NCBI GenBank assembly: GCA_016218965.1
Contig: JACRCP010000248.1
Span: 10,517 to 74,516 of the forward strand
Direction of reading: 5' to 3'
Length of the DNA stretch: 64,000 nt
Source of the DNA: Deltaproteobacteria bacterium
GTDB taxonomy: Bacteria; Myxococcota; SpSt-1050; JACRCP01
The notes under the pieces were generated by a model. It had not been told where the DNA came from. It saw only the letters and a program-made list of their open reading frames with translations, and did no database searches. Each line of letters starts with the position of its first letter. Positions within the stretch are counted from its first letter, which is position 1. Below, piece by piece: positions 2,641 through 53,025 of this stretch. A program made the position numbers and the translations under genes.

Positions 2641-3147
2641 ATGCCACAGGACGAACACAAAAAACACGCCGGAGGGCGAAAGGCGCGGGTCCACGTCATC
2701 ACCGTTTCGGACACGCGCACGGCAGCCACCGATTCGAGCGGCGCCGCCGTGCGGGACGCCCTCGGGCGCGAAGGGCATCTCGTTGCGGGCCATGAGATTC
2801 TCAAGGACGAGCCCGAGGCGATCGCGCGGCGCGTGCGGGAGGTCAGCAAGTCGGGTTCTGCCGACGCAGTTCTGCTCAACGGCGGGACCGGGATCTCGCG
2901 CAGGGACTCGACCTTCGAAGCGGTCGATGCCCTGTTCGATCGGCGGATACCGGGTTTCGGCGAACTGTTTCGGTTCTTGAGCTATCGCGAAATCGGCTCG
3001 GCCGCAATGTTGAGCCGCGCCGCTGCAGGGCTTGTGGGGGAAACGCTGGTGTTCCTCGTCCCCGGGTCGACCGACGCGGTGAGGCTGGCGATGCGTTCGC
3101 TCATCATCCCCGAGCTCGCGCACGCCTTGTGGGAACTCAAAAGGTGA
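2641..3147 (+). CDS. moaB: Molybdenum cofactor biosynthesis protein MoaB/MogA family
   Basis: Motifs VITVSDTR, LLNGGTGISRRD and GFGELFR are characteristic of the MoaB/MogA fold. Confidence 0.85.
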   Translation: MPQDEHKKHAGGRKARVHVITVSDTRTAATDSSGAAVRDALGREGHLVAGHEILKDEPEAIARRVREVSKSGSADAVLLNGGTGISRRDSTFEAVDALFDRRIPGFGELFRFLSYREIGSAAMLSRAAAGLVGETLVFLVPGSTDAVRLAMRSLIIPELAHALWELKR

Positions 3148-40438: not shown

Positions 40439-41266
40439 GTGCACCAGGTCTTCAGATCGCGCCGGCTCATGCGGGCCGGCGTCCGGAACCTCCTGAACAT
40501 CCGCACCCGAAGGGTTTCGCTTGCGCCCCCGGGACTTCCACGGGCGTTTGACGGGTTTTCCATCCTGCTCCTCTCGGACATGCACCTCGGGTCGATCCCC
40601 GAGCTCGGGCCGGCTGTCGTCCGGGTGATAGAGGGTCTTCGCGCCGACGTCTGCGTGTTCGCCGGCGACTTCCGCCTTTATGCGCACCAGAGCGGCCCGA
40701 CGTTCGAAACGGACCTGCGCCGGATCGTCGATGCGGTCCGCGCACCGGCGGGCCTGTACGGCGTCCTCGGGAACCACGACACGATTGACGACGCGCGCCT
40801 TGCAGATTGCCTGGGAATCAGAATGCTCGTCAACGAGGCCGTGTCGATCCGGCGGGACGGCGCGACCATCCGTCTCGCCGGGGTCGACGACCCCCACACG
40901 TACCGGCTTGACGACCTTGACCGCGCTCTCGCCGGCGCCCCGAAGGGGGCTTTCACGGTCCTTGCCGCACACACATCCGAGATCGCCGCCGACGCGGCGC
41001 ACAAGGGCGTCGGCCTTTACCTGTGCGGTCACACGCACGGGGGGCAGATCTGTCTTCCCGGGGGCGTGCCCCTGCTGGTCTCGACCCGGTCGCCGCGGGC
41101 GTACGCCTGCGGCGAATGGGACCTGCGCGGAATGAAAGGCTATACGAGCGCCGGGGTCGGGGCGTCCATCGTTCCGGCCCGGTTCAACTGCCCCGGGGAG
41201 GTTGTCACAATCGAAATGAGGGCTAAAAGCAGTCGGACTCGCCCAGCTCGTACCAGTTGCCCTTGA
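40439..41266 (+). CDS. Calcineurin-like metallophosphoesterase
   Basis: Motifs D.H (SDMHLG), GD (FAGDF), GNHD (LGNHD), and GH.H (CGHTHGG). The N-terminus may extend upstream, since the frame is open back to 40319. Confidence 0.75.
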   Translation: MHQVFRSRRLMRAGVRNLLNIRTRRVSLAPPGLPRAFDGFSILLLSDMHLGSIPELGPAVVRVIEGLRADVCVFAGDFRLYAHQSGPTFETDLRRIVDAVRAPAGLYGVLGNHDTIDDARLADCLGIRMLVNEAVSIRRDGATIRLAGVDDPHTYRLDDLDRALAGAPKGAFTVLAAHTSEIAADAAHKGVGLYLCGHTHGGQICLPGGVPLLVSTRSPRAYACGEWDLRGMKGYTSAGVGASIVPARFNCPGEVVTIEMRAKSSRTRPARTSCP

Positions 41267-41405
41267 GCGGCGGCTCGGCCTTCGGGGCCTTCGGGGCCTT
41301 CCCGGCGGCTTTTGCCTTGTGGGCATCTTCCTCTGAGAGCTGGTATTTCTTGAGGACGTCGGGCGGAATCTTGTAGAGCTTCCCCTCGATGACCGTGTAT
41401 TTTTC
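41223..41405 (-). CDS. Candidate independently translated small peptide (61 aa), in-frame with rSAM #2: MEKYTVIEGKLYKIPPDVLKKYQLSEEDAHKAKAAGKAPKAPKAEPPLKGNWYELGESDCF
   Basis: Has its own Shine-Dalgarno: AGGAGGG is 9 nt upstream of the ATG on the minus strand. It lies beyond the end of the SPASM domain. It contains K/A/P repeats and a single Cys at the C-terminus. Confidence 0.3.
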   Translation of the reverse strand, partial: EKYTVIEGKLYKIPPDVLKKYQLSEEDAHKAKAAGKAPKAPKAEPPLKGNWYELGESDCF

Positions 41406-42341
41406 CATTCGTCCGTTCCCTCCTGCGTTCGCCGTACGCACTATATCATATGCCCGCGCAAAGGCCAATTTCAGACGGCACTGCGGCCCTTGTCTCTTTG
41501 ACCCCAACTTGGGGACGCATCGCGTACAATCCCGGAGAGCCGGGCAACGGCTGCACGCCGCCGAATCGACGATCAGGCGCGCGGCATTCGAAACCGGGCT
41601 TCGGTGGCAGGGGAGCACCGTCCCGTCGGGTTCGATGGTCATGGTATCCACGCCCGGATTGCAGGCCGCCGCCCTCCCCTCGCGCGCGCGTTCGAAATCG
41701 GACACGCGCGGGAGGACGCCGGTTTTTACCCCTCTTTCGTATTCCGCGGCCAATGCGCACAGCGAGCCGTCGAGGCGTTGAATCGGGCGGGGACCCCATC
41801 GGATGTTTGCCGCGGGGGCGATTCCCAGTTGCGTAACGCCGATCCCCGCGAGGTACAGCGCGTCGTCCCGGACGTGTCCCGCGGAGGCGGGCGTCACGGT
41901 CATCCGGACTGCCGTCGGCACGCCCGCCTTTGACAGCAACTCGAAGGCCCGAACGACCCTTGCATGCGTCGGAGACCCGCCGGCCGCCCTCCTGTGCCGG
42001 TCGTGCGTTTCGGTCTTGCCGTCGAGCGCAAGGGACACGGAGATGCCGTTTCGCGAAAGGAACCCGGCGGTCCCGGCATCGAGCAAGGTCCCGTTGGTGT
42101 TGAGCGTGAAAGCGCATTCCGGGTGCGCCAAAACCGCGGCGCGCAGCAGTTCGAAACGGAGCAGCGGCTCCCCGCCGAAGAAGACGACATCCCTCTTCCC
42201 GCGCGGGACGCGTTCGACAAGCGTGTCGAAAGAACGGATCATCGCCCGCCGGTCGGTTCTCCGCACGCGCCCGCCGCGGCCTGCGTAGCAATACCCGCAA
42301 CGGAGATTGCACGCGCCCGTGAGCTTGAGAACGATTCTCAT
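41223..42341 (-). CDS. Radical SAM/SPASM enzyme (rSAM #2) carrying an in-frame 61-aa C-terminal extension
   Basis: CxxxCxxC (CNLRCGYC) and a SPASM cluster (CSRCPALRDCTRC...C). The ATG overlaps the stop of the upstream GT2 gene (ATGA). The ORF reads through 'GGNGR' into the peptide-like tail with no stop. Confidence 0.75.
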   Translation of the reverse strand: MRIVLKLTGACNLRCGYCYAGRGGRVRRTDRRAMIRSFDTLVERVPRGKRDVVFFGGEPLLRFELLRAAVLAHPECAFTLNTNGTLLDAGTAGFLSRNGISVSLALDGKTETHDRHRRAAGGSPTHARVVRAFELLSKAGVPTAVRMTVTPASAGHVRDDALYLAGIGVTQLGIAPAANIRWGPRPIQRLDGSLCALAAEYERGVKTGVLPRVSDFERAREGRAAACNPGVDTMTIEPDGTVLPCHRSPVSNAARLIVDSAACSRCPALRDCTRCVPKLGSKRQGPQCRLKLAFARAYDIVRTANAGGNGRMEKYTVIEGKLYKIPPDVLKKYQLSEEDAHKAKAAGKAPKAPKAEPPLKGNWYELGESDCF

Positions 42342-43111
42342 CTCCCGCCACCGACCGCCCACCGCCCGCCGCCAAGCCGTGCGAGCCTGCCCGATCTCAC
42401 CCACTTCTCGAGAAACCGTTCCTTTCCCTTAATTCGTATCTCGAGGTCGTCGGGGCGGAGCCCAAAGCTCGCGGACTCCTCATGGATGAAGACGGCCGAG
42501 GGCTCGTACACGCTCGACCAACCGGCCTCGACGAAACGCAGGCCCATGTCGCAGTCATCGTACATTCCGAACCCGAAGCCCTCGTCAAGGCCCCCCAGTT
42601 CCCGAAAAGGCGCCGTCCGCAGAAGGATCGCCGCGTACGTGATCATGTCAAGCTCCCGGGGCTCCAGGACCTCCGGGGCGTGGCGGGTGAAGTATCGGTA
42701 CCTGTGGACGGGAATCCCTTCGCTCCCGATCTCGATCCCCGCGTGCGCCACCGTAATGCCGTCCGGAAACAGGAGCAGCGCGCCGACCGCTGCCGCCCGG
42801 GCGCGCTCGTCGAGCGCTCGGGACATAGCGGTGTCCCATCCGCCGAAGGGCACGACGTCGGAATTGAGAAGGAAGAAACGGTCAGATTGGACCAGCGACG
42901 CACCGCGGTTTGCCGCCGCGGGGAACCCGAGGTTTCGCTCGTGCACAACCGCGCGAACCCCATGCCTTCGTGAGCAGCCCCGGACAAGCTCGCGCGTCGC
43001 CGCATCCGGGGACGCATCGTCGACCAGGATCACATCGTGTCCGCGGAGATGCCCGAGCAGGCGTGCGAGGCCGGGGGCGTTGCCGTACACGGGGATGACT
43101 ACTTCAGCCAC
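42338..43111 (-). CDS. Family 2 glycosyltransferase
   Basis: GT-A fold motifs: VILVDDAS, DxD-like (NSDVV) and a C-terminal acceptor region. Overlaps both flanking rSAM genes. Confidence 0.85.
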   Translation of the reverse strand: MAEVVIPVYGNAPGLARLLGHLRGHDVILVDDASPDAATRELVRGCSRRHGVRAVVHERNLGFPAAANRGASLVQSDRFFLLNSDVVPFGGWDTAMSRALDERARAAAVGALLLFPDGITVAHAGIEIGSEGIPVHRYRYFTRHAPEVLEPRELDMITYAAILLRTAPFRELGGLDEGFGFGMYDDCDMGLRFVEAGWSSVYEPSAVFIHEESASFGLRPDDLEIRIKGKERFLEKWVRSGRLARLGGGRWAVGGGR

Positions 43112-44022
43112 GGGGCGTGCTCCGGCGCAAGGTACGAAAGCGCGTAGGGTCCGTCAATGAAACACTCCGGTTTGAAGCACTCGGACTTGAGAGCGTCAAG
43201 GACGAGGCCGTCCCATCGCGCGGGGACTTCCCCGATCGGAAGCGCGAGTTCGTGCGAGTGGCAGAGCCTGAATTTCCCGTCGGGGTCCACGACGCCGGTC
43301 AGTCCCTTGCACGCGCAGGGCCTGTGTGCGCCCGTCCTCAAAAACCGCCCGATGGCCGCGGTGAAATCAAGGTTCCCTTTTGCGCGATCGGGAAGCCTGT
43401 TGAGCACGGTATCGAGATTGGCCACCTGCGCCGGCGTCCAGGAGACATCGGACTCCCCTCGAAAATACGAACCCCGGACAGCCGGCCGGAGCGCAACCTC
43501 GCAGTCATAGTACTCCGCGACCGCGGCGACATCCAGAAGCGCCTCCGCCCCGCCCGGCGCCACCGTGACCGACAGCCTCGGGCGCTTCCGGAAGTGGTCC
43601 CTGACAAAGAGGATCCCCCGGAGAACCTCGTCGTAGCTCCCCGTTTGCCCGTGGCGCGCGTCGTGGACGGGGGCAAAGCCGTCGAGCGAAAGGCAGACCA
43701 GAAGGTCGGGGTCGGCGCCGGCAAGCCTTTCGAGAACAGGCCGGGCCTGCCACGCGTTGGTGACGACCGCGCGCTCGTGCGCGCGCGGGAAACGCCCCCT
43801 CGCCCACGCGATCGCCTCGGCGAGCCTGGGAAAGAGCGTCGGCTCACCCCCGAACCAGTTCAGGTACTCGAGGCCGTCGAAGAACGGGTGCCCGAGGGCC
43901 TGTTTGATTCGGTCAAGGTCAAGGAATTCGGGGGGTGAAGGCGCCTGCTTCCAGATCGAACAGATGGTGCACCTGAGGTTGCACCGCCATGTCACCGCGA
44001 TACTAAGGAGCTTGAGCGCCAT
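43099..44022 (-). CDS. Radical SAM enzyme with C-terminal Cys-rich (SPASM/twitch-like) region (rSAM #3)
   Basis: CxxxCxxC (CNLRCTIC) and C-terminal cysteines (RPCACKG...RLCHSH...ECFKPEC). The start was chosen at MALKLL; the track ORF extends to 44052. Confidence 0.7.
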   Translation of the reverse strand: MALKLLSIAVTWRCNLRCTICSIWKQAPSPPEFLDLDRIKQALGHPFFDGLEYLNWFGGEPTLFPRLAEAIAWARGRFPRAHERAVVTNAWQARPVLERLAGADPDLLVCLSLDGFAPVHDARHGQTGSYDEVLRGILFVRDHFRKRPRLSVTVAPGGAEALLDVAAVAEYYDCEVALRPAVRGSYFRGESDVSWTPAQVANLDTVLNRLPDRAKGNLDFTAAIGRFLRTGAHRPCACKGLTGVVDPDGKFRLCHSHELALPIGEVPARWDGLVLDALKSECFKPECFIDGPYALSYLAPEHAPWLK

Positions 44023-44176
44023 CGACGCGGATTTTAGGGCGGTCCGCGTCATTTGGCAACGCTTCGGTCCGCGCCAACGGTCCGTTTCGACCAGCGAGTT
44101 CGCAGATCCTTCTCATTTGACACCACGGGTGCCTGTCTATAAGATCGGTTCCGACAGACGGCCAAGAAGGGCACCG

Positions 44177-44866
44177 ATGCTGAACAGCCTTGACGAAATC
44201 CGCGATCGCATTGTCCGGTCGTACGACCCGGAACGGATAATCCTTTTCGGGTCGTGGGCGCGGGGCGAGGCAGACGAAACTAGTGATGTCGATTTGCTGG
44301 TCATCAAGGACACCGCGGCCAGGCCGCTCGATCGCCGCTGCACCGTGGAAAAAATCCTTCTTGATAGAGACGTGCCGCTGGACCTTCTCGTCTACACGCC
44401 GGCAGAGGTCCGCTACCTGTATTCCATCGGGAGTCCGTTTATCGAAGACGTCATGGAAACCGGGAGGGTCCTGTACATGCGGAAGGCGACGGAAAGCTGG
44501 GTCGGGGACAGCGAAGAAGAGTTGAGAACCGCACAAGTGCTGATCGAACACGACAGATTCAGGGGCGTCTGTTACCACAGCCAGCAGTGCGTCGAGAAAG
44601 GACTCAAGGCGGCGATCATCGAGAAAGGCAGCCGTCCCGAAAAGACCCATGACGTTCTTGAGCTTCTGAAGGAGGCCCGCAACCTGGGGTTCGAGATCCC
44701 CCTTGAGATGGATGACGCGGTCTTCCTGAACAGCATCTACAAGGGAAGATACCCGACCGAAGAGGGCCTTCTCCCGCACGGCGACCCGTCGCGCGACGAC
44801 GCCGAGCGCGCGTTGCGCGCGGCGGACTCGTTTTTTTCAGCCCTGCGCTCGTCTTTCGGTTGTTAG
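44177..44866 (+). CDS. Fused nucleotidyltransferase (Pol-beta-like MNT) plus HEPN-domain protein
   Basis: N-terminal GS...D.D NTase motif (FGSWARGEADETSDVDLLV). The C-terminal helical domain has an Rx4-6H-like element (RPEKTHD). The architecture resembles fused MntA-HepT or kanamycin-nucleotidyltransferase-type proteins. Confidence 0.7.
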   Translation: MLNSLDEIRDRIVRSYDPERIILFGSWARGEADETSDVDLLVIKDTAARPLDRRCTVEKILLDRDVPLDLLVYTPAEVRYLYSIGSPFIEDVMETGRVLYMRKATESWVGDSEEELRTAQVLIEHDRFRGVCYHSQQCVEKGLKAAIIEKGSRPEKTHDVLELLKEARNLGFEIPLEMDDAVFLNSIYKGRYPTEEGLLPHGDPSRDDAERALRAADSFFSALRSSFGC

Positions 44867-44999
44867 TTTTTTTGGGGCACGCGCGTTTTTGGCACGCCCG
44901 TTTTTGCGCCTTTACAGCGCCTTTTTGTTACATATAATGTGGGCGACGGAATGTTGAAGGACAATCCCACCAGTACACCCACCATGGAGCCCAGAGGTC

Positions 45000-46727
45000 A
45001 TGGCTGACAGCAGGGCCGACCTGGCCCGCATCGATCTGGCCGCATCGATCGATCAGAAGGACTTCACCGCGCTTCCGCTCCAGCGGAGGCTCGAGCTGCT
45101 CCCGTACCTGCCGCCGTCAAGAAGGCGCAACTACGTCCTGGCCTGCGAGGACTCGAAGGCCCTCGTTGAGGCCATGCAACCGCAGGACCTTTTCCTTACG
45201 ATCAAGGAGATCGGGCTCCACGACGCCGCCGAGATCGTGGGGCTTGCGAGCCCCGAGCAGTTCCAGAACTGCCTGGACCTCGACTGCTGGAACAGGGACG
45301 TGATCGACGCGGAGACCTCGTGGCAGTGGCTGACGGTCCTGTCGGAGGCGGGCCTGGACGTGCTCATGGGCAAGGTCGGCGCCCTCGACTTCGAGGTCGG
45401 GATCGCGCTCTTCGCGGAGCACGTCAAGGTGTACGTTGCGAAGGAGGATTTCGATCCGGACGAGGGCGTCCCGCCCGGGAGTTTCACGGCGGACGGTGTT
45501 TACCACCTCGTGATCGACGCGTCCCCGGACCGGGTCGAACTCATCGAGAAGATGGTGACAGACCTGTTCCACCGCGACTCGGATCTGTACCTCCGGCTGC
45601 TCAGCGCGGTCCGGGACGGGATGAACGCTCCTGTGCAGGAGGAGGCCCTCAGGTGGAGGACCGCGCGCCTTGCCGACCTCGGGTTCCCCGACTACGTCGA
45701 GTCGCTCAAGGTCTACTCGCGGCCCGACAAGAAAAAGGAGCGGCGCGACCTCCGCTCCGCGGTCCCCAAGGGCGACGTTCCCCCTTCGTTTGCCATCATC
45801 CGGCACGACGGCCTGTCGGTGGTCCCTCTCGACGCCGCGGCAAGGGTCGACTCCGACGACGCGGCGGCCGTGGCCGCGGGGGCCGCATACCTTGTGAACT
45901 GGCTCGCGGTCGCCGATCGGGTGGACCCCGGCGATGTGACGCAGGTTCGCGAGCTGATGGAAAAGGCGCGCGGGTACGTGTCGATCGGGCTGCACGAGAT
46001 TGGGGGTGATCCGGCCAGGACACTCGCTTCGACGCCGATGCTCGACATCTTCAGAACGGGATTTGCCAGGGCAAAGGACCTTGCCGACAGGGCAAAAAGG
46101 ATCGTCGCCGAGCACCCCCTCATCGCGGGAGACAAAAAGGCCCTCCGCCTCGACGAGGTGAGCCGCGAGACCGTAGCGGCCCTGCTCCAGCCCAGGCCCC
46201 TCCTCTACCTCGGCGCGGTCAAGGACGGTGCGGCGGGCATGGGGCATTTTTCGTCCGCGCATGACGTCGCCGCCATCTCCGGTCTTCTCGACAAGGTCGA
46301 CGCCTCGGCCGAGGTATTCGGGACGGTGCTCAAGATATTCAAGAAGGACCTCCTGGCCCTCGATCTCAAGGGGCTCAACGTCCCGATCCGCGACGATCTC
46401 ACCGTGAGCCGGGTGTTCAACACCGCGGTGGCGCAGAAGGCGCTGAAAGACGCCTTCGTCCTTGAGCCCGTCGCAGCCGGTGACCTCGCAAAACTCCACG
46501 GCCTTCTCTTCGTGCGGTCCGGAGACGGATGGGACATCGCGCCGTCGGCGGCTGAGACCGTCAAAGACATCATGGAAGTGGTCGAACGGAAGCGCCCCGA
46601 CCTCCGCCGGCCCGCCATGCAGTTCATGAACGCCTGCCTCGAGGACCTGCGCGACAGTCTCGCCCACGTGGACTTCTCGAAAGAGGTCAAACCCGACTTC
46701 ATCGGGTCGCTCATCATCAGGAAATGA
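45000..46727 (+). CDS. Hypothetical protein (575 aa, alpha-helical, no recognised motif; possibly a Myxococcota-restricted DUF)
   Basis: Long open frame with coding-like GC3 bias, ATGA-coupled to the downstream DUF72 gene. Confidence 0.65.
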   Translation: MADSRADLARIDLAASIDQKDFTALPLQRRLELLPYLPPSRRRNYVLACEDSKALVEAMQPQDLFLTIKEIGLHDAAEIVGLASPEQFQNCLDLDCWNRDVIDAETSWQWLTVLSEAGLDVLMGKVGALDFEVGIALFAEHVKVYVAKEDFDPDEGVPPGSFTADGVYHLVIDASPDRVELIEKMVTDLFHRDSDLYLRLLSAVRDGMNAPVQEEALRWRTARLADLGFPDYVESLKVYSRPDKKKERRDLRSAVPKGDVPPSFAIIRHDGLSVVPLDAAARVDSDDAAAVAAGAAYLVNWLAVADRVDPGDVTQVRELMEKARGYVSIGLHEIGGDPARTLASTPMLDIFRTGFARAKDLADRAKRIVAEHPLIAGDKKALRLDEVSRETVAALLQPRPLLYLGAVKDGAAGMGHFSSAHDVAAISGLLDKVDASAEVFGTVLKIFKKDLLALDLKGLNVPIRDDLTVSRVFNTAVAQKALKDAFVLEPVAAGDLAKLHGLLFVRSGDGWDIAPSAAETVKDIMEVVERKRPDLRRPAMQFMNACLEDLRDSLAHVDFSKEVKPDFIGSLIIRK

Positions 46728-47533
46728 CAGTCATGCCCTGCCGCGTGTACATCGGCACGTCGGGCTATTCGTACGCCGATTGGCGGGGGGTGTTCTACCC
46801 GCCTTCGCTCGCCCAATCATCATTTTTGGAATTTTACTCCCGCCGGTTTCCCTGCGTCGAGTTGAACTACACCTACTACCGGATGCCCGACGCCGAAACG
46901 CTTTCGCGGATGGAGCAGAAGACCCCCGCGGGCTTCATCTTCACAATCAAGGCCCACCGCGAGATGACGCACGAGATTGACGACGTCAAGGCCGTGGAGA
47001 TCTGCAACCTGTACCTGAATGCCCTGGAACCGCTTGCTCGTGCGGGGAAACTCGGCTGCGTTCTCTTGCAGTTCCCGACGTCGTTTCACTACACCGACGC
47101 GAACCGCCGGCGCCTTGCAAAGCTCCTGGATATGCTCTCTTCATTGCCGCTGGCGGTGGAGTTTCGCGGGGGGGACTGGCTTCGTGACAGGGTCTACACG
47201 GGCCTGACGAAAAAGAACGCCGCGTTCGTCTGTGTGGACGAGCCGGCCCTTCCCGGGCTCATCCCCCCGCTGGAAGTCGTGACCGCGGATATCGGCTACG
47301 TCCGTTTCCACGGCCGGAACGGCGAAAACTGGTGGAGCGGCGACTCGGCGTCCCGCTACGACTACCGCTACACCGCGGCCGAGCTTGGCGAGTGGGCCCC
47401 GCGCCTGAAAAAAATCGCCTCGGAGACCGAAAAGGCCTTTGTCTTCATGAACAACCACTGGCAGGGCAAGGCCGCCGAAGCCGCCGTGATGCTCAAGGAG
47501 ATCCTCGAAAACGAGGGCCTCGAAACGGCATGA
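46724..47533 (+). CDS. DUF72 (UPF0759/TM1631-like) family protein
   Basis: N-terminal 'YIGTSGYSYADW' and the 'RFHGRN' region typical of DUF72. Confidence 0.8.
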   Translation: MTVMPCRVYIGTSGYSYADWRGVFYPPSLAQSSFLEFYSRRFPCVELNYTYYRMPDAETLSRMEQKTPAGFIFTIKAHREMTHEIDDVKAVEICNLYLNALEPLARAGKLGCVLLQFPTSFHYTDANRRRLAKLLDMLSSLPLAVEFRGGDWLRDRVYTGLTKKNAAFVCVDEPALPGLIPPLEVVTADIGYVRFHGRNGENWWSGDSASRYDYRYTAAELGEWAPRLKKIASETEKAFVFMNNHWQGKAAEAAVMLKEILENEGLETA

Positions 47534-47621
47534 GGTCCGCTGTTGGCGTGAGGTCCGCTTGCGCCCGGGGGCCGGGGCGTGTAGGCTGGCGCGGCCGTCG
47601 AGGGAGTCCTGGAGGGACCGA

Positions 47622-48620
47622 ATGTTTGCGAGCGCGTATCAGCTGGGCGCCGAGTTCTCCGCGCGGGCGAGGCACTTCGGGCAGCCGCTGTTCGTGCTCG
47701 CGCACCAGGACGACGAGCTCAACTACGCGGGCCTGATCTCGCGGCTGGGACCCAAGACCCGCTTCGTCTGGGTCACCAACGGCGACGGCCTCTACCAGGA
47801 ATCGAACCTCGGTCCCGGAAAATACGGCGACCTCCGGATGGCAGAGGCCGTCCGTTCGGTCGCTGCGGCCCGAATCCCCGAACAGAACACTCGGTTCCTC
47901 AAGTTCTCGGAGGTCGAGATCTACCGGCACCTGGCGGAGATCTATGGCGAGGCTGGAGGCATCCACCTTCGCCATCCAACTTCGCCAAGGCTTCGTCGGG
48001 CAAGAGGCTACGGCGGACAAGGGAGGCTGGGGGCGGGAGGTATCGGAGAGCCGCATCGCGTGTTCTTCGACCGGATCCGCGTGGCTGTTCGCAATGCCCT
48101 CTTCGAGATCGATCCCGACGTCGTTTTCACTCTCGCCTGGCAGGGGGGCCAGCCCGAGCACGACCTCACGCACCTCTTCACGATGCTTGCCATCCACGAT
48201 TTCAGGCGCGAACGCGGCGGCAAGGTCGAGTTCTTCCACCTGCCGGAGTACGAGTACACGATACTGCTCGCGATGCGGTTCCACCCGTTTTACCGCGGTG
48301 TGAGATACCGGATACGCCTGACCGACGATGAGATGGCGGTCAAGCAGAAGATGATTGACGCGTACGCGTCGCAGGCTCGCCTGTTCGGTGAGTTCCGCAA
48401 GGTCTTCACATACATCGGCCGTGTCGGGCGGTTCGTCGGCGGGCCGAAGAGCGCCGAAGAATACCTGTCGACCGAGGAATTCGGTCCCGTCCCCGCGGAT
48501 CTCGACTACACGGCAAAACCGCACTCCCTGGACTACTTCACATACATGTTCGACCATTTCGAAGGCACGCCGGTCACGTTTTCCCGGTCCATCCGCCCGA
48601 TCGTGGGGACTTTCATATGA
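47622..48620 (+). CDS. PIG-L/LmbE-family N-acetylglucosaminyl deacetylase-like protein carrying an in-frame ~28-aa Gly/Arg-rich insertion
   Basis: 'FVLAHQDDE' matches the PIG-L (L/V)xxAHPDDE zinc motif. Residues encoded by 47958-48045 (GGIHLRHPTSPRLRRARGYGGQGRLGAGG) correspond to a DNA repeat that recurs downstream. Confidence 0.7.
   Translation: MFASAYQLGAEFSARARHFGQPLFVLAHQDDELNYAGLISRLGPKTRFVWVTNGDGLYQESNLGPGKYGDLRMAEAVRSVAAARIPEQNTRFLKFSEVEIYRHLAEIYGEAGGIHLRHPTSPRLRRARGYGGQGRLGAGGIGEPHRVFFDRIRVAVRNALFEIDPDVVFTLAWQGGQPEHDLTHLFTMLAIHDFRRERGGKVEFFHLPEYEYTILLAMRFHPFYRGVRYRIRLTDDEMAVKQKMIDAYASQARLFGEFRKVFTYIGRVGRFVGGPKSAEEYLSTEEFGPVPADLDYTAKPHSLDYFTYMFDHFEGTPVTFSRSIRPIVGTFI
47958..48045. repeat. 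Copy A of a ~90-nt repeat (AGGCATCCRCCTYCGCCATCCAACTTCGCCAMGGYTTCGYCGRGCAAGAGGCTACGGCGGACRAGKGAGGC...), in-frame inside the PIG-L CDS
   Basis: About 89% identical over ~71 nt to copy B at 48624-48728. Both end in a (GGAGGCN)-type heptamer tract. Confidence 0.7.
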
Positions 48621-48623
48621 CAG

Positions 48624-48728
48624 GCATCCGCCTCCGCCATCCAACTTCGCCACGGTTTCGCCGAGCAAGAGGCTACGGCGGACGAGTGAGGCGCGAGGCA
48701 TGAGGCAGCAGGCGAAAGGCGGGAGGCG
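48624..48728. repeat. Copy B of the ~90-nt repeat, intergenic; its 3' heptamer tract (gaggcgc gaggcat gaggcag caggcga aaggcgg gaggcgg) provides the ATG and first codons of the downstream Omp85-like gene
   Basis: Direct comparison with copy A. The tandem 7-nt register is visible. Confidence 0.7.
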
Positions 48729-50319
48729 GACAGTCACGACATTCATTGTTGCGTGGTGCCTTGCGGCTTCGGTTGCCGGGGCGGCGGAAAAGGCGCGCGA
48801 GCCGGCAGTACTGTTCCACGGCAACGTCGTGTTTCTCGAACCCGTCCTCTTGGGCCAGATGGGGATTGACGGCGCGGCCGTCCCGTCCGCCAGGGAGATG
48901 GCCGCGGGGATCGAAAGGCTTTACGCGTTCTACCGGAAGAGCGGGTACGTGCTTGTCGACATGCACTACCGCAAGAGAGGGCCCACCTGGCACGTCTTCA
49001 TCGACGAGGGGAAGCTCGATCGCATCATCATCATCGGCACGGGTTCGATTCGAACCGTTCTCATAAGGCAGAGCATCCACCTGCCGTACAAGGTCTTCAA
49101 CAAGGCACAGATCGAGAAGGACATTGAAGCCATCAAGAAAAAACACGGGATCCCCCGCATCGACTACAAGGTGGTCGAGCTCGAAGAGGTCGCCCACGAG
49201 GGCTTCCAGATCCCCGAATGGCTCACCGCCACGGGCCATGACATACTGCCCCCGGCGCTCTCGTTCGAGCCGCGCGCCCGCTACGACCTGCGCATCCACG
49301 TACGCAGCAGCGAGTGGGGCACGGGGTTCGGCTGGGGTCTCGACTACACCTCGCTGGGGATCTCCGCCCACGCCGACTACAGCGGCGAGTCGGCACTGTT
49401 TGAAAAGGACCGCCAGCGCCTGCTGGTGGCCGCCGGCGGCGACCGCCGGAGCCGGATTGACGACGGGAACGACTACCTTACGTTCGCACAGGGGACCGTC
49501 GAGGTCGAGTATTTCCTCCCGCCCATTGCAAAGACCCGCATCCGGCCGCAGTTGGTTTCGCGCAGCGACATCGCCAACTGGCAGCGCAAGGACCTCCCGC
49601 TGGAGCTCTATTGGTTTTTCAAGGAAGAGCTCTCGGCAAACGCGCAGTTCGAGCCTTTCACGAGTTTCACGCTCTCGCTCGGCGCCGGGAGCCAGTTCAA
49701 CAACCTTTTCGGCTTGGAGACTGTCGAAAGCAGACCGATGGAGGCGCCGGTGGCCGAAGGCCCCTTCCAGCGCTGGTTCGTCGCGGGGACCGTGGAATAC
49801 CAGTTTGACGAACTGATGCTGCGCAAGGACCAGCGGCACTCAGTCTTCGGAAAGGCCAGCCACTACTTCGGCGGGAGCCGCAACACTACGGGCGCCTTTG
49901 AGATCGAGTACCAGAAGGTCTTTCTGTTCGGGTACGACGACCTGACGCTAAAAACCGCAGGCCTCTACATGTGGGGCGATCCGGTCTTCCACGAGGAATA
50001 CCGGTTGACGTGGGGGCCGTTCTCGTCGAGCTTCGACAACATGTTCTACGTCCGGAGAGCCGCGTACCAGGCGGCGGACTACGGCATGTCTTTGTACCAC
50101 GAGGTCGTGACGCTCCACGTATTCTGCGACCTGGCGGCGTTCGGCAGGATTTCGAGAAAGGACAACTCCGAGGAGTTGGCCGGCGCCCTCTCGGCCGGCC
50201 CCGGCCTGTCGCTTCTTCTGTACGACACCTTCATGTTCAGGCTCCACTACGCCTACGGCCGCGCCACCACCGGCGACTCCGGCTGGGAACTAGGGATGAG
50301 CTTCAGGAAGGTGTTTTGA
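48700..50319 (+). CDS. Omp85/BamA-superfamily outer-membrane protein with one N-terminal POTRA-like domain
   Basis: Signal peptide. POTRA-like segment (IERLYAFYRKSGYVLVDMHYRKRGPTWHVFIDEGKLDRIIIIGTGS). Long region with beta-strand periodicity and a C-terminal '...MSFRKVF' aromatic terminus. Confidence 0.7.
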   Translation: MRQQAKGGRRTVTTFIVAWCLAASVAGAAEKAREPAVLFHGNVVFLEPVLLGQMGIDGAAVPSAREMAAGIERLYAFYRKSGYVLVDMHYRKRGPTWHVFIDEGKLDRIIIIGTGSIRTVLIRQSIHLPYKVFNKAQIEKDIEAIKKKHGIPRIDYKVVELEEVAHEGFQIPEWLTATGHDILPPALSFEPRARYDLRIHVRSSEWGTGFGWGLDYTSLGISAHADYSGESALFEKDRQRLLVAAGGDRRSRIDDGNDYLTFAQGTVEVEYFLPPIAKTRIRPQLVSRSDIANWQRKDLPLELYWFFKEELSANAQFEPFTSFTLSLGAGSQFNNLFGLETVESRPMEAPVAEGPFQRWFVAGTVEYQFDELMLRKDQRHSVFGKASHYFGGSRNTTGAFEIEYQKVFLFGYDDLTLKTAGLYMWGDPVFHEEYRLTWGPFSSSFDNMFYVRRAAYQAADYGMSLYHEVVTLHVFCDLAAFGRISRKDNSEELAGALSAGPGLSLLLYDTFMFRLHYAYGRATTGDSGWELGMSFRKVF

Positions 50320-50414
50320 AGAAGGCAGGAGGCAGGAGGCGGAAGGTCGGGTGAATCGCGGGCCGATTGGTGGTATGATATCGGCCGTACCGGGACTCCT
50401 ACGGAGGGCGAGCC

Positions 50415-52940
50415 ATGCGAAAAGGAATCACCGCGTGCGCCTGGGCGGGGTTTGTCGTGGCCGCGATTTTTGTGGCGTCGGCGTGCAACAACGCCGCGGA
50501 CAGTTCGGGCTGCAGCCAGGATCGGGACTGCGAAGGCGGAAAGGTCTGCATTCAGGGCGTCTGCCGCGCGCCGGGCCTCGGGCCGTTCCGGGACGGGGGA
50601 GGAGCGCGGGACGAAGGCACGGAGGACGAAGGGACGACGGACGACGGGCCCGCCGGAGACGCGGGAGACACGGTAGGACCTGACGCCGCGCTGGCGCCCG
50701 AGGCCGGTTCCGATGGGTCGGATCCGTCCGATTCGTCCTATCCGTCCGATGCGTCCGACGCCTCGCCGGACGGACCCGGTGACGGGTCGGAAACCGGCGA
50801 CACAGGCTCGCCGGATGCCGGCTCCGACGCCGGGGGAATCCCCCCCAAGACCTGCGGGCGGCCGGACCCGTATCCCCAGCCCGACATGACGCCCGAGGAC
50901 CCGGCGTTCGTCATTCCGCCGGAGTTCTGCCAAAGCGGCGTGTTCTTGCGTTTTGATTCGCAGAACGGCTACGCCCTGACCCCGTTCCCCAACAATTTCT
51001 ACACCGAGTACGATGCCGACACGTCCACGTGCATGCGGCTTGCTTTCGAGGGGCGCATCGGCCCAAACGAGGGGACGTTCACGACGTACCCCGAGACAAG
51101 GGCCCAGCTCGAGGCGCTTGAAGGTTTTTCGACGAGCTCGCGCATAAGCTTCATCGCGAGCGATCAACTGGAAAACAGCTATCTTGTGCCGGGATCGCTC
51201 AAGTACTTCGACCCCGAAAAGAGCGACCTGCCCGACGCCGCAATGATCATCATCAACGCCGACCCGGGTTCCCCCGAATACGGCAGGCTCCACAAGTACC
51301 TCGTCCAGGAAACTTGGGACCCCGACAGGGAAGGCGTCGCCGGCGAACACCTGCTTCTACTGCACCCGCTCGAGCCCCTTCTTTCCAAGACTAGATACGC
51401 CGCAATCGCCACCACCAGGGTGCCTACGAAATCCGGGGGGTGCCTCGGCCCGGACCGGCGGATGGCGATGCTTCTTCTGGGAAAGGCAAAGGGAGTCGGC
51501 ATCAACCGGTTGCAGCCGGACGTGGACCCGCTGTTTGACCTGCTTGCGCAGAAGAACATTCCGATTGCGAAAAAGGACGTGGCGGCGCTCACAATCTTCA
51601 ACACGATGGACGTTCGCCGCGACACGCTCTACATCTTTGACAAGGTCCGCCGCGAGACGGCGGCAAACCCACCGGACTACGTGCCCGGAAGCCTCACCTG
51701 GAGCTACCCACAAAAGACCGGGATCGGCGTCCAGATCAACGGCAAAATACAGGTGCCGACGTACCGCAATCCCGAGACGGGGCTTCTGGCGCTCGACGGC
51801 TCCGGCAACCCGGTGCAGAACACGACAACGGAGATCGAGTTCGCGGTCCGTTACCCAAAGGACGTACCGCCGCCGTACCGGATGTTCGTCTATCACCACG
51901 GCCTGGCCGGCAAGTGGGGCGAGTTTGGCGGGGTTTCGGAGCGCCTTGCGCAGGAGAGCATCCTTGCGGGCAAGGAGGGGTGGGCGACCGCGGCCATATC
52001 GACCATCCACCACGGCGAGCGCTGCACGACCGAGCCGAGGTGCAAGCCCGCCGACTGCAAGTCATGCGGCGAGGGGACGACGGCCGATGCCATGGCAATA
52101 TTCCATTTCTTCGCCATAGACGGGAAGAACTTCAACATGGAGTTCGCCCGCGAGAACTTCAGGCAGGACTATATTGACTGGCTCTACTTCATCCGATTCC
52201 TGACGAGGCCGCAGGGCCTGGACTTTTTGCCCGAAGGCGCGCCCGACGGCGTGCCCGAGGTCAAGGTCGAGCACGTGGGCTATACCGGCCTGTCGCTGGG
52301 AGGGTGCATGGGCGGGGGGATCGTGCCGCTGGTTTCCGAGATCGAAGTCGGGCAGATCAACGTCGGCGGCGGGGGCCTAACCGACATCCTGCTCAACTCC
52401 ACGATCTTCGGGTCATTCATCCTGCTCCTCAAACCCCAGGGGAGTTCGAGCTTCGACATCGACTATTTCTTCCCCATCATCCAGACCATCTTCGACCCTG
52501 CGGACCCCGTCAACTACGCGATCGGCATGTTCCATGAACCGTTTGCGGAAATCGGTGCGAAGGCAAAACCGGTGATCTTCGAGATGGTCGAGGGCGACCT
52601 GTTCGTGCCCAACTACACCAACGAGATGCTGGGTCGCGCCGCCCGCACCGTGCAAGTCGGGAAGCAGTACCACGACGTGCCCGGCATGGAGGCCGGGCCT
52701 CCCATCCCGGTTTCGGCCAACCTTCCCAGCGGCCTCACCACGGGGTACTTCCAGTTCAAGGAGTCGTGCACCGAGGACGGGTCGAAGAACTTTTTGAACT
52801 TCAACCACGGCGACATGCTCAACTCGCCCAACGGCGCAGTACAGTGGCGCCATTGGTTCAGGACGTTCTACGACACAGGGACGGCCGAGATTCTCGACCC
52901 GTACGAGCAGCCGCCGTTCGCGGGGAAGTGCCGGCAGTGA
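50415..52940 (+). CDS. Secreted lipoprotein alpha/beta-hydrolase (lipase/esterase-like), paralogue 1
   Basis: Lipobox (FVASAC), a long D/G/S/E-rich low-complexity linker, and a GYTGLSLGG nucleophile elbow with Asp and His candidates downstream. Confidence 0.75.
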   Translation: MRKGITACAWAGFVVAAIFVASACNNAADSSGCSQDRDCEGGKVCIQGVCRAPGLGPFRDGGGARDEGTEDEGTTDDGPAGDAGDTVGPDAALAPEAGSDGSDPSDSSYPSDASDASPDGPGDGSETGDTGSPDAGSDAGGIPPKTCGRPDPYPQPDMTPEDPAFVIPPEFCQSGVFLRFDSQNGYALTPFPNNFYTEYDADTSTCMRLAFEGRIGPNEGTFTTYPETRAQLEALEGFSTSSRISFIASDQLENSYLVPGSLKYFDPEKSDLPDAAMIIINADPGSPEYGRLHKYLVQETWDPDREGVAGEHLLLLHPLEPLLSKTRYAAIATTRVPTKSGGCLGPDRRMAMLLLGKAKGVGINRLQPDVDPLFDLLAQKNIPIAKKDVAALTIFNTMDVRRDTLYIFDKVRRETAANPPDYVPGSLTWSYPQKTGIGVQINGKIQVPTYRNPETGLLALDGSGNPVQNTTTEIEFAVRYPKDVPPPYRMFVYHHGLAGKWGEFGGVSERLAQESILAGKEGWATAAISTIHHGERCTTEPRCKPADCKSCGEGTTADAMAIFHFFAIDGKNFNMEFARENFRQDYIDWLYFIRFLTRPQGLDFLPEGAPDGVPEVKVEHVGYTGLSLGGCMGGGIVPLVSEIEVGQINVGGGGLTDILLNSTIFGSFILLLKPQGSSSFDIDYFFPIIQTIFDPADPVNYAIGMFHEPFAEIGAKAKPVIFEMVEGDLFVPNYTNEMLGRAARTVQVGKQYHDVPGMEAGPPIPVSANLPSGLTTGYFQFKESCTEDGSKNFLNFNHGDMLNSPNGAVQWRHWFRTFYDTGTAEILDPYEQPPFAGKCRQ

Positions 52941-53012
52941 CGCACGACTGACGACTCACGACTGACGACCTACGACTCTGAAGGACTGTCTCGCGCCTCC
53001 CGCCTCATGCCT
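52941..53012. repeat. Copy 2 of the composite heptamer element: (TSACGAC)x5 followed by (revcomp of GGAGGCN)x4, located between the convergent hydrolase paralogues
   Basis: 'gcacgac tgacgac tcacgac tgacgac ctacgac' ... 'ctcgcgcctcccgcctcatgcctcctgcc'. Its reverse complement has the same architecture as 28186-28345. Confidence 0.55.
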
Positions 53013-53025
53013 CCTGCCTTGTGAC

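Follow-up and report, generated by a model that had tools for sequence, protein, structure and literature searches.

A candidate mobile unit of about 31 nt, nested in a 61-nt composite, inside and just downstream of a PIG-L deacetylase gene of a Deltaproteobacteria bacterium

As a rule, small interspersed repeats are restricted to one species or genus, and to our knowledge the Rickettsia palindromic elements (RPEs) are the only ones well known for colonizing coding sequences. The GC clusters of yeast mitochondrial DNA are 30-50 bp long, GC-rich, partly palindromic and mobile, and occur in-frame in var1. The STRR of cyanobacteria are short tandemly repeated heptamers located mostly between genes. 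As PMC10969869 summarizes the work of Ogata et al. (2000), RPEs are elements of ~150 bp found in Rickettsia only, with one conserved peptide per family. REPs are extragenic and species-specific, occur in hundreds of copies and form a stable hairpin whose stem has GTAG at its foot (PMC3116915, PMC3337134). MITEs have terminal inverted repeats and a fixed-length target duplication, and usually a parent IS (PMC10969869, PMC5896051).

The window analyzed here is a 64-kb (64,000-nt) stretch of DNA from a Deltaproteobacteria bacterium. An earlier note on its sequence had described a ~90-nt repeat inside a PIG-L gene and again ~580 nt downstream. The repeat was confirmed by a repeat search of the whole window, which returned a direct-repeat family of 84 nt and 85% identity (47957-48040 and 48622-48705) with a gap of 581 nt separating copy A from copy B, and BLASTN aligned a 71-nt core of the two copies at 88.7% identity (E ~3e-17). 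The copies are 665 nt apart, in the same orientation and in one operon. No third copy was detected by BLASTN or the repeat search within the window, where the conserved blocks CCATCCAACTTCGCCA and GCAAGAGGCTACGGCGGAC are also confined to copies A and B. The sub-repeat CTTCGCCA, which had been called purine-rich, is actually pyrimidine-rich; it is doubled in copy A, as had been noted, but not in copy B, where CTTCGCCA is preceded by CTCCGCCA.

Each copy consists of a 61-nt core followed by a (NNNAGGC)n heptamer tract (Table 1). The core can be parsed into two ~31-nt units, one of them lying within the loop of the other, judging from the family consensus of the unit, ATCCGCCTTCGCCAAGGCTACGGCGGACAAG. 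Identity to this consensus is 97% for the outer and 84% for the inner unit of copy A, and 93% for the outer unit of copy B. The same nested layout (13+13+2+16+1+16) was found again at one metagenomic locus, L049. The ends of the inserted segment, ATCC...GACAA, are common to site A, site B and the nested junction, and both insertions are at the boundary between (NNNAGGC) heptamers. As had been noted, a heptamer tract ends each copy, with six units at copy B (48688-48729 by TRF) and three at copy A; the extra heptamer material of copy B is present, at a size of ~21 nt rather than ~18 nt. A regex scan counted four (NNNAGGC)n tracts in the window compared with 0.64 in shuffles. The tract at the end of the downstream gene is longer in the window than at the relative's locus, and the GGCATGAGGC unit of the copy B tract recurs at 53005-53014 on the minus strand. 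These tracts and the other period-7 tracts of the window resemble STRR in being heptamer repeats that are mostly intergenic, although sequence and host differ.

Table 1. Positions of the two copies, their tracts and the neighboring genes in the window
Feature	Position	Strand	Remarks
PIG-L/LmbE-family deacetylase CDS, host of copy A	47622..48620	+	332 aa; Pfam PF02585 2e-11; identical Logan gene call
Heptamers x2 directly 5' of core A	47947..47960	+	GCGAGGC TGGAGGC; homologous heptamers in core-less relative
Copy A core	47961..48021	+	61 nt; 60-nt net gain (20 codons) vs nearest relative, from alignment to the empty sites of L002-L004
Copy A core parts	47961-47973; 47974-48004; 48005-48021	+	left outer arm; inner unit; right outer arm
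Heptamers x3 directly 3' of core A	48021..48041	+	GGGAGGC TGGGGGC GGGAGGT
Mini-ORF, 28 codons	48617..48703	+	MTGIRLRHPTSPRFRRARGYGGRVRREA*; from ancestral overlapping ATG (ATGA 48617-20); TGA overlaps new ATG (ATGA 48700-03)
Copy B core	48626..48686	+	61 nt, at the PIG-L/next-gene junction; 88.5% identical to core A (61 nt each)
Copy B heptamer tract	48686..48727	+	GTGAGGC GCGAGGC ATGAGGC AGCAGGC GAAAGGC GGGAGGC; TRF period 7, 6 copies
Downstream gene	48700..50319	+	539 aa; signal-peptide protein, weak POTRA match; first ~10 codons in heptamer tract
Related (NNNAGGC)n tract	50320..50347	+	just 3' of the downstream gene's stop; outside the repeat pair
Related (NNNAGGC)n tract	52995..53022	-	has GGCATGAGGC unit; adjoins (ACGACTG)n 52944-52977; outside the repeat pair

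Copy A is in-frame in the PIG-L gene, where its core translates as GIHLRHPTSPRLRRARGYGGQ. Foldseek matched the gene product to 33 solved LmbE/PIG-L deacetylases at E<=1e-3, and all invariant residues of the PIG-L family are retained in the 332-aa product. The earlier note had suggested that a 28-aa Gly/Arg-rich segment was a lineage-specific insertion in a loop. The orthologue alignment agreed with the first part, since the segment is missing from 17 orthologues and the nearest one has only eight of its residues. The second part was borne out by the AlphaFold model (pTM 0.87), in which pLDDT falls below 50 only at residues 116-137, between two helices; the insert is thus predicted to be a disordered surface loop of the protein.

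Copy B fills a 79-nt spacer ahead of the next gene, which opens at ATG 48700 also in the Logan gene call. The downstream protein aligns with its orthologues after MR and has four extra residues at the N-terminus. Of the label 'Omp85-like' given to it before, a weak match to Pfam POTRA (2e-4, 22.5 bits) is what stood, and the protein had no NCBIfam match and no PDB sequence match. A mini-ORF runs through copy B from the ancestral ATG, and the element is read in the same frame in the mini-ORF as in PIG-L. A Shine-Dalgarno-like GAGG (48688-48691) in the heptamer tract is at -12 to -9 of ATG 48700. It had been proposed that copy B donates the start codon of the next gene. This is one possible reading, but the ancestral ATGA is kept at 48617-20 and a second ATGA is present at 48700-03, so the heptamer tract may have supplied the new start, or else the ancestral overlap may have undergone a short duplication. 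Neither copy A nor copy B coincides with a promoter- or terminator-like site.

The nearest relative, with ~85% nucleotide identity to the window, is represented by three contigs (L002-L004). In these, 60 nt are missing at site A, and at site B the PIG-L stop and the next-gene start overlap as ATGA, with no remnant of the element. Two outgroup contigs (L133 and L132) have spacers of 5 and 15 nt at site B, and their proteins lack the PIG-L segment; more distant orthologues lack both insertions. The view that the intergenic copy B is a derived insertion was thereby upheld. Site A shows an exact gain of 60 nt between intact heptamers, and an ATGA stands at each end of site B, at a distance of 83 nt. 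From this presence and absence between lineages only, we infer mobility. Copies A and B are probably insertions of a very small non-autonomous mobile or selfish element, a 60-61-nt composite of nested ~31-nt units.

The ~31-nt unit belongs to a wider family. A metagenome scan with a gapped unit pattern returned at least 120 loci. Among the matches listed, 103/122 have the exact 22-mer in unrelated flanks; conservation at the 21 searched bases is partly built in by the design of the scan, and the conserved sequence extends beyond them to a unit of ~36 nt. The hosts include Myxococcota, Patescibacteria and one Lentisphaerae MAG, and probably Nitrospirota, and 11 viral contigs of IMG/VR carry the unit. 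It is nearly unchanged across genomes of 29% to 75% GC. The family is not peculiar to Myxococcota; it spans several phyla. Plasmid sequences (7.3 Gb) and those of cultured phages (2.3 Gb) yielded marginal partial matches only. The exact 19-mer had six matches, about the number expected by chance, in a set with one genome per species that does not include the source MAG, and only one of them (L006) is related.

At least 15 of the 122 listed copies are in-frame in genuine genes, including those for MnmA, MiaA, transketolase and kinases, and Pfam domains surround the unit in nine ORFs. All three frames and both orientations are used, giving AFAKATAD, LRQGYGGQ or PSPRLRRT from one strand and VRRSLGEG or LSAVALAK from the other in different genes. 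In MnmA, an insert of ~25 aa was found relative both to solved structures and to close Patescibacteria relatives, and the unit is also present in MiaA. TpiA (L020/L087) was not counted as a proven insertion, because its net length is unchanged compared with solved structures. The unit stands at orthologous positions in diverged contig pairs from different studies (L018/L026, L020/L087, L016/L067 and L061/L102). One locus (L100) resembles the window in having one copy in a CDS and another just outside, 525 nt away, and inverted pairs of the unit occur at this locus and at L130.

The doubled 61-nt form was not found elsewhere when six-frame peptides of both copies were searched against 5.8 billion proteins, a short-peptide query of low power whose sole match was the PIG-L protein itself. 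An exhaustive phmmer search of the copy-A peptide against 1.84 billion representatives, likewise with the low power of a short peptide, gave 0 matches, and the exact 19-mer did not reveal the doubled form either in the set with one genome per species. No Rfam 15 family was detected over copies A and B, the region or 25 family loci; a sub-threshold match to Acido-Lenti-1 at one locus (L012) was rejected as a different sequence with an unrelated hairpin. In the published literature, searched for the motif strings, in-frame palindromic elements, Myxococcota MITE/REP and RPE-citing papers, no description of the unit was found, and it is apparently undescribed so far.

The hairpin of the element is thermodynamically weak. 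Only the internal 6-nt arms TCCGCC/GGCGGA of the unit are complementary, the stem is 6-8 bp and often mismatched, and a mismatched central pair in the 6-bp stem occurs in 30% of the family copies. In DNA folds the cores had z values of -0.3 to -0.7, and the generic unit had z -0.95 and -2.0. RNA folding had been put forward as a check: with the tails included, plus-strand folds beat shuffles (z -2.0 and -2.7), and those of the minus strand did not; the RNA fold of copy B encloses the SD and the ATG. Some copies place the unit at the tip of long hairpins, with a flexible-register z=3.4 driven by few copies. A general covariation of the flanks extending the hairpin was considered and withdrawn, the fixed-register signal being weak (z<=3).

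Flanking direct repeats were found around 18.8% of the family copies compared with 4.2% of same-locus controls (p=1.3e-7), with lengths of 8-18 nt and a variable distance. Our first view, a total absence of target duplication, was dropped, because this family-wide excess makes it unsafe. Period-7 tracts around the unit are in slight excess only across the family and are not a general companion. When 2202 ORFs from 131 unit loci (701 kb) were clustered all-against-all, no recurrent transposase-like family was obtained; the clusters (histidine kinases, ABC-F, Ser/Thr kinases, KAS) were all generic. No associated IS and no RAYT-like neighbor gene were found in these 131 loci either.

The family can be compared with the described systems on these grounds. 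It resembles RPEs, as these are presented in PMC10969869, in consisting of short repeats of non-coding origin that lie between genes and in-frame in unrelated working genes as a tolerated surface segment, and in that neither element encodes a transposase. In-frame tolerated insertions were found in the PIG-L loop, the MnmA insert and the nine Pfam ORFs, and the RPE-like behavior that had been suggested was accordingly seen in a dispersed family that is repeatedly in-frame in unrelated genes. By the same description RPEs are set apart in size and host: the element is ~31 nt here (60-61 nt when nested) and is found in several phyla and in viral contigs (PMC10969869). That source also gives each RPE family one conserved peptide, whereas the present family is read in all frames and both orientations (PMC10969869). 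We thus observed neither a ~150-bp Rickettsia-restricted element nor a peptide in a fixed frame.

The unit is similar to REPs in being short and GC-rich with an imperfect dyad, in having GTAG on its minus strand and no obvious fixed target duplication, and in the inverted pairs of some family members. However, its GTAG is in the loop, its stem is short and often mismatched, and many copies are intragenic, including one of the two in the window. The window pair is direct and not inverted, which differs from a REPIN. With MITEs such as Correia/NEMIS, ERIC and Coxiella QMITE1/2 the element shares a non-autonomous nature and the ability to form in-frame fusions and to provide neighbors with expression signals (PMC10969869, PMC5896051), but every described MITE is several-fold larger than the unit. 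Its two ends, ATCC... and ...GACAAG, do not match as inverted repeats. The earlier comparison with Correia-like MITEs was not sustained: we saw neither terminal inverted repeats nor a target duplication of fixed length, and no related IS in the loci examined. A GC-rich unit standing out in AT-rich DNA, as in a Patescibacteria mnmA of 29% GC (L089), recalls the yeast GC clusters, although those are organellar, belong to another host domain and are unrelated in sequence.

The direction of change at site A leaves room for another history, since a core gained by the window lineage and a core lost by the relative are equally parsimonious. Core A may be ancestral, an ~81-nt unit (core, tail and an 11-nt duplication) having inserted once and the relative having later lost the 60-nt core, a possible account that we nevertheless regard as doubtful. 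The heptamers of core A carry a flanking direct repeat, GCTGGAGGCAT (47952-62) and GCGGGAGGTAT (48033-43), 81 nt apart, and the relative keeps GCGGGAGGCTT GAGGCCGAAG GCGGGAGGGCT, that is, the flanking direct repeats and the tail without the core. The PIG-L lengths (305 aa in the outgroups, +27 in the window and +7 in the relative) fit this history exactly, and the family copies show an excess of flanking direct repeats. However, a 21-nt tandem duplication of three heptamers followed by insertion of the core gives the same lengths, heptamer tracts in this lineage expand by themselves, and site B of the relative has no remnant.

It is rather unlikely that one copy, together with a few flanking bases, reached the other site, ~665 nt away, through replication slippage, template switching or ectopic repair between heptamer tracts, in which case the pair would be uninformative on mobility. 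Such local copying would fit a pair that is close, direct and limited to two copies in 64 kb, the similar arrangement at L100, the AGGC to the left and GAGGC heptamers to the right of both copies, and the derived features CCAAC and GCAAGAGG, shared by A and B and missing from the consensus. A and B are mutually closest relatives, and the 64 kb contain just these two copies, so that one step or more could have been local copying. But the cores diverge by 11.5%, about as far as the window and the relative do across the flanking genes, and any slip was therefore not recent; the ends ATCC...GACAA are identical at A, B and the nested junction, and the flanks share just 4-5 nt beyond the heptamer consensus. 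In any case the doubled core must have come from elsewhere, as members of the unit family are scattered over many genomes.

A selected function, either a cis RNA structure for PIG-L/next-gene coupling or stability at copy B or a useful Arg/Gly-rich loop or peptide at copy A and in the mini-ORF, seems improbable. The plus-strand folds described above would suit it, as would the shared frame of A and B, in which 4/7 core differences are synonymous (by our own count, not significant). Against it, the family occurs in three frames, on both strands and inside and outside genes, which leaves neither one peptide nor one RNA orientation conserved; Rfam gave no match, promoter or terminator signals were not seen, and a close relative manages without either copy. 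An assembly or sequencing artefact is scarcely credible, for although the source is a metagenome-assembled genome and the Logan contig may stem from the data set behind that MAG, the Logan assembly has exactly the same sequence through both copies, no reading frame is broken, the copies carry mutations, and the unit is at orthologous positions in diverged contigs from different studies.

Under the preferred explanation, insertion of a small non-autonomous element, trans-acting machinery would copy the unit into new sites. The hints are that the unit may prefer hairpin loops and repeat tracts, and that short direct repeats of variable length would often accompany insertion. Only copies that leave genes intact would survive. 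Copy A would have survived because its 20 codons (60 nt) extend a predicted disordered surface loop of PIG-L. Copy B would have survived because stop/start coupling stays, the ancestral ATGA ending PIG-L and opening the mini-ORF, whose stop overlaps the new ATG; the GAGG of the heptamer tract would precede this ATG at good spacing. The mini-ORF may thus have a role in the coupling. A bolder reading, possible but somewhat less likely than not, would make the ~31-nt unit an undescribed ultra-small mobile module of several phyla and their viruses that enters hairpin loops and repeat tracts, including the loop of its own copies (giving the nested 61-nt form), and routinely lands in-frame in coding sequences. 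Its machinery would not be a classical TIR transposase, and possibly uses a single-strand or template-switch/repair route with flanking duplications of variable length.

The unit keeps a near-identical sequence across several phyla and viral contigs, and is in-frame in housekeeping genes (mnmA, miaA, transketolase and kinases). Since close relatives differ in having these sites filled or empty, the window amounts to a clean natural experiment. At site B the insertion splits overlapping genes yet would keep their stop/start coupling through a relay mini-ORF. Should the unit prove mobile, few known mobile DNA units would be as small, and it would be a source of protein loop and linker insertions across uncultured bacteria; numerous odd Arg/Gly/Ala-rich segments and spurious 'hypothetical proteins' of metagenomes would also be explained by it.

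A single direct-repeat family was detected in the region, with copies of 84 nt at 47957-48040 inside the PIG-L gene (copy A) and at 48622-48705 before the next gene (copy B), which are 85% identical. In a BLASTN comparison, the core that they share spans 71 nt and is 88.7% identical (E about 3e-17); repeat finding and BLASTN thus bore out the pair described in the earlier note. CTTCGCCA, called purine-rich there, is pyrimidine-rich, and its doubling was found in copy A and not in copy B. No further copies were detected in the 64-kb window by BLASTN, the two fully conserved blocks did not recur in it even with 3 mismatches, and a fuzzy search of the window with the family consensus matched copies A and B only. 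We consider it probable that the repeat is a very small non-autonomous element, inserted twice here and surviving where genes stay intact; its putative mobility is read from presence and absence only.

A 61-nt core in each copy has the layout ATCCRCCTYCGCC ATCCAACTTCGCC A(A/C) GGYTTCGYCGRGCAAG A GGCTACGGCGGACRAG. When spliced, the outer arms match a 31-nt consensus, ATCCGCCTTCGCCAAGGCTACGGCGGACAAG, at 97% identity in copy A and 93% in copy B; for the inner 31 nt, the corresponding values are 84% and 74%. Since both parts match the consensus, the core looks like one unit nested in the loop of a second unit. The same 13+13+2+16+1+16 layout was observed in L049, an unrelated metagenome contig.

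The PIG-L protein of the window has 332 aa, and its homologues mostly have 302-314 aa (among the 120 listed). In a 19-sequence alignment, 17 orthologues had gaps opposite the 28 residues of GIHLRHPTSPRLRRARGYGGQGRLGAGG and the nearest one, P0002 (80% identity), had only 8 residues there, which upheld the earlier proposal that this segment is an insertion. All invariant residues of the family were kept in the window protein. The AlphaFold model was confident (pTM 0.87), with pLDDT below 50 solely at residues 116-137, the loop between helices 97-111 and 143-163. Because low pLDDT was confined to this loop and the invariant residues were kept, the insert is predicted to be a tolerated surface loop. 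The three contigs carrying P0002 (L002-L004, the nearest relative) lack exactly 60 nt at this site, and a tandem duplication of 21 nt (AGGLRPK/AGGLGES), missing from outgroups, is retained in the relative's gene. Polarity is less certain here than at the site of copy B. The lengths of 305, 312 and 332 aa fit equally well a tract that came first with the core added later, and a whole unit that came first with the core lost in the relative; an ancestral core at the PIG-L site, later lost, is a possibility we hold with rather low confidence, for this site alone.

At the site of copy B, the PIG-L stop and the next start overlap as ATGA with zero spacer in L002-L004, and the spacers of more distant loci are 5 nt (L133) and 15 nt (L132); hence, the 79-nt spacer of the window is derived. 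The ancestral ATGA (48617-20) still terminates PIG-L, and its ATG has become the start of a mini-ORF of 28 codons, MTGIRLRHPTSPRFRRARGYGGRVRREA, in which the element is translated in the frame used within PIG-L. This mini-ORF terminates in a TGA (48701-03) that overlaps the new ATG (48700), and a GAGG derived from the heptamer tract lies at -12 to -9 of that ATG. GGCATGAGGC was found again in a tract at 53005-53014 on the minus strand, and this recurrence favours the heptamer tract as the likely supplier of the new ATG; alternatively, this ATG may stem from the ancestral ATGA by a short duplication. Termination-reinitiation might be relayed via the mini-ORF, a process that would also melt the structure in which the SD and ATG are enclosed. 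Neither copy coincided with promoter or terminator signals. For the 'Omp85-like' label given earlier to the downstream gene, a weak POTRA match was the only support found. Further downstream, 50415-52940 (+) encodes an 841-aa protein without a Pfam match, whose similarity to NCBIfam VolA/Pla-1 family phospholipases is weak and far below threshold (33.9 bits vs a cutoff of 383.9). Synteny with L002 breaks directly upstream of the operon: the relative has a cas4-cas1-cas2 adaptation module directly upstream of the DUF6178-DUF72-PIG-L genes (L002 1-1799 vs window about 42000-45000), where the window has glycosyltransferase, radical-SAM and NTP_transf_2/HEPN genes.

In both copies, the core sits at a junction of (NNNAGGC) heptamers. 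The window contains more such tracts than shuffled sequence does (4 vs 0.64). The tract at 50320 is longer than at the relative's locus, so tract growth does not depend on the core. We regard local copying from one of the two heptamer tracts to the other, which is compatible with the preferred reading of an inserted element, as unlikely. The cores differ by 11.5%, and since this resembles the 12-18% divergence of flanking genes between the window and L002, the copies are not a fresh duplication. A composite of (NNNAGGC)x4-5, a spacer and (GTCGTNN)x5-8 was also observed at 28184-28333 (+), inside the ORF 24986-36427 (-) for a 3813-aa DUF11-repeat surface protein; there it falls within the linker that separates SdrD_B-like from Glucodextran_B-like domains (about aa 2698-2747). 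It is a second type of small repeat residing in a coding sequence. The same two-tract composite occurs in opposite orientation at 52939-53022, first (ACGACTG)n (52944-52977) and then (CTCCCGC)n (52990-53019); it is intergenic, just past the 841-aa gene, and contains GGCATGAGGC as in the tail of copy B.

Insertion sites, genes containing a unit in frame, and hosts
Feature	Position	Description	Evidence
PIG-L/LmbE deacetylase gene	47622-48620	copy A in-frame inside	Pfam PF02585; Foldseek matches to 33 solved family members
Next gene	ATG at 48700	copy B occupies spacer before it	
Heptamers at copy A		two before core, three after	
Heptamers at copy B		six after core, extending into first ten codons of next gene	
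Unit in transketolase	N/Pyr linker		Pfam
Unit in Amidohydro_2			Pfam
Unit in E2 acyltransferase	linker		Pfam
Unit in two PMT_2 glycosyltransferases			Pfam
Unit in RlmI-like methyltransferase			Pfam
Unit in type III pantothenate kinase			Pfam
Unit in protein kinase	activation segment		Pfam
Unit in FabF	N-terminal extension		Pfam
Host		window's Myxococcota / 'Deltaproteobacteria' MAG	
Host	L006	Lentisphaerae MAG; variant copies	
Host	L089	Patescibacteria/Kuenenbacteria; 29% GC	
Host		lineage with MiaA closest to Nitrospirota MAG	

A single metagenome scan with the pattern CTTCGCCA-N(0-30)-GGCTACGGCGGAC gave at least 120 loci, with hosts judged by record titles or nearest named relatives. The exact 22-mer CTTCGCCAAGGCTACGGCGGAC was present in 103 of the 122 matches listed, with completely unrelated flanks. 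Conservation within the scan pattern is by construction; the consensus outside the searched bases, C[T/A]TCCGC...A[A/G]G[T/C]CG, is not. The 22-mer was also found in 11 IMG/VR contigs; practically none was present in plasmids and phages of cultured organisms. In three IMG/VR contigs (L136, L138, L142), the opening codons of a small AT-rich viral ORF (MKKLFPPSPRLRRTWLSV...) contain the GC-rich unit, which places the unit in frame on putative phage DNA as well. No Rfam family matched the repeat, and neither the motif nor such an element was described in the literature searched. A sub-threshold Acido-Lenti-1 match at L012 870-914 (-) (30.7 bits, gathering score 37, E 0.002) was rejected as unrelated to the unit. 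The minus strand of L012 (100-520) also holds several other GC-rich repeat variants, e.g. TCCGCCGTCGCCCTx2 GC GGGCTATGGCGGACAGGx2 and CCCTTCGACAAGGCTCAGGGCAAG, and related short units sharing the doubled layout may thus form a wider superfamily. In L130, a very repeat-rich locus with many heptamer-type tracts, 102-nt inverted repeats containing the unit (1924-2025 and 3018-3119, 98% complementary) bracket about 1 kb with a HicB-like antitoxin ORF.

Among the matches listed, 62 open frames, many of them spurious, run across a unit and extend for at least 60 codons to either side of it, and at least 15 of 122 copies are intragenic, orthologous duplicates counted. In nine tested ORFs, Pfam domains either flank the unit on both sides or span it. 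MnmA encoded by L089 (29% GC) is longer by about 25 residues, precisely where the unit lies, than solved MnmA structures and also than close relatives of 363-365 aa; in MiaA the unit lies in a hypervariable linker. TpiA, which carries the unit without net length change, was not counted as an insertion. The FabF-type ketoacyl synthase of the orthologous contigs L102 and L061 has an N-terminal extension (MSPPTPKAPPFAKATAD...) with the unit before the first Pfam domain residue, and may be another case of the element reshaping a gene 5' end. In L100, two 79-nt inverted unit-bearing copies lie 525 nt apart (2460-2538 and 3064-3142), one in-frame in an Amidohydro_2 gene and the other directly downstream of its stop, which parallels the window except for the inversion. 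Translations of the unit are AFAKATAD, LRQGYGGQ or PSPRLRRT from one strand and VRRSLGEG or LSAVALAK from the opposite one, and therefore selection is not on one peptide.

A possible unit stem, TCCGCC/GGCGGA, has 6 bp, or 8 bp with a bulge, making the hairpin a modest one; its central pair is mismatched in 30% of family copies among the matches listed. DNA folds of the 62-nt cores were no better than shuffles (z -0.3 to -0.7), and RNA folds reached z of -2.0 and -2.7 only on the plus strand with the heptamer tails included. A selected RNA or peptide function is quite improbable in our judgement. Past the unit, the flanks showed weak complementarity at fixed register; allowing the register to flex gave a modest signal (z=3.4). 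In a few cases, a long pre-existing hairpin carries a copy at its tip (L104, 11 bp; L081, 9 bp), which, together with the unit-in-unit nesting, fits insertion into loops. Flanking direct repeats of at least 8 nt accompany 18.8% of copies vs 4.2% of same-locus controls (p=1.3e-7). They vary in length (8-18 nt) and distance, often as [DR][core][10-40 nt][DR], an arrangement that the repeat around copy A (GCTGGAGGCAT / GCGGGAGGTAT, 81 nt apart) fits, and may be either target duplications of variable length or short tandem duplications that the unit prefers. No transposase-like family recurred near the unit at unit-bearing loci. An independently assembled Logan contig was identical to the window over 41232-49182, with the same gene boundaries, and an artefact is hardly credible.

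Rickettsia palindromic elements form in-frame, tolerated insertions in unrelated genes (PMC10969869). The earlier comparison with them holds in this respect, whereas the element departs from them in its size, its host range and the absence of a fixed reading frame. The accompanying likeness to Correia-like MITEs is not supported: terminal inverted repeats are lacking, and neither a fixed duplication nor a parent IS was seen at the unit-bearing loci. Similarity to REP/REPIN sequences is loose (GC-rich, weak dyad symmetry, GTAG in the loop), and many copies are intragenic and no RAYT was found at the unit-bearing loci. The element is best described as a short interspersed repeat invading genes, unusual in its 31-nt unit, its nesting and the conservation of its sequence across phyla.
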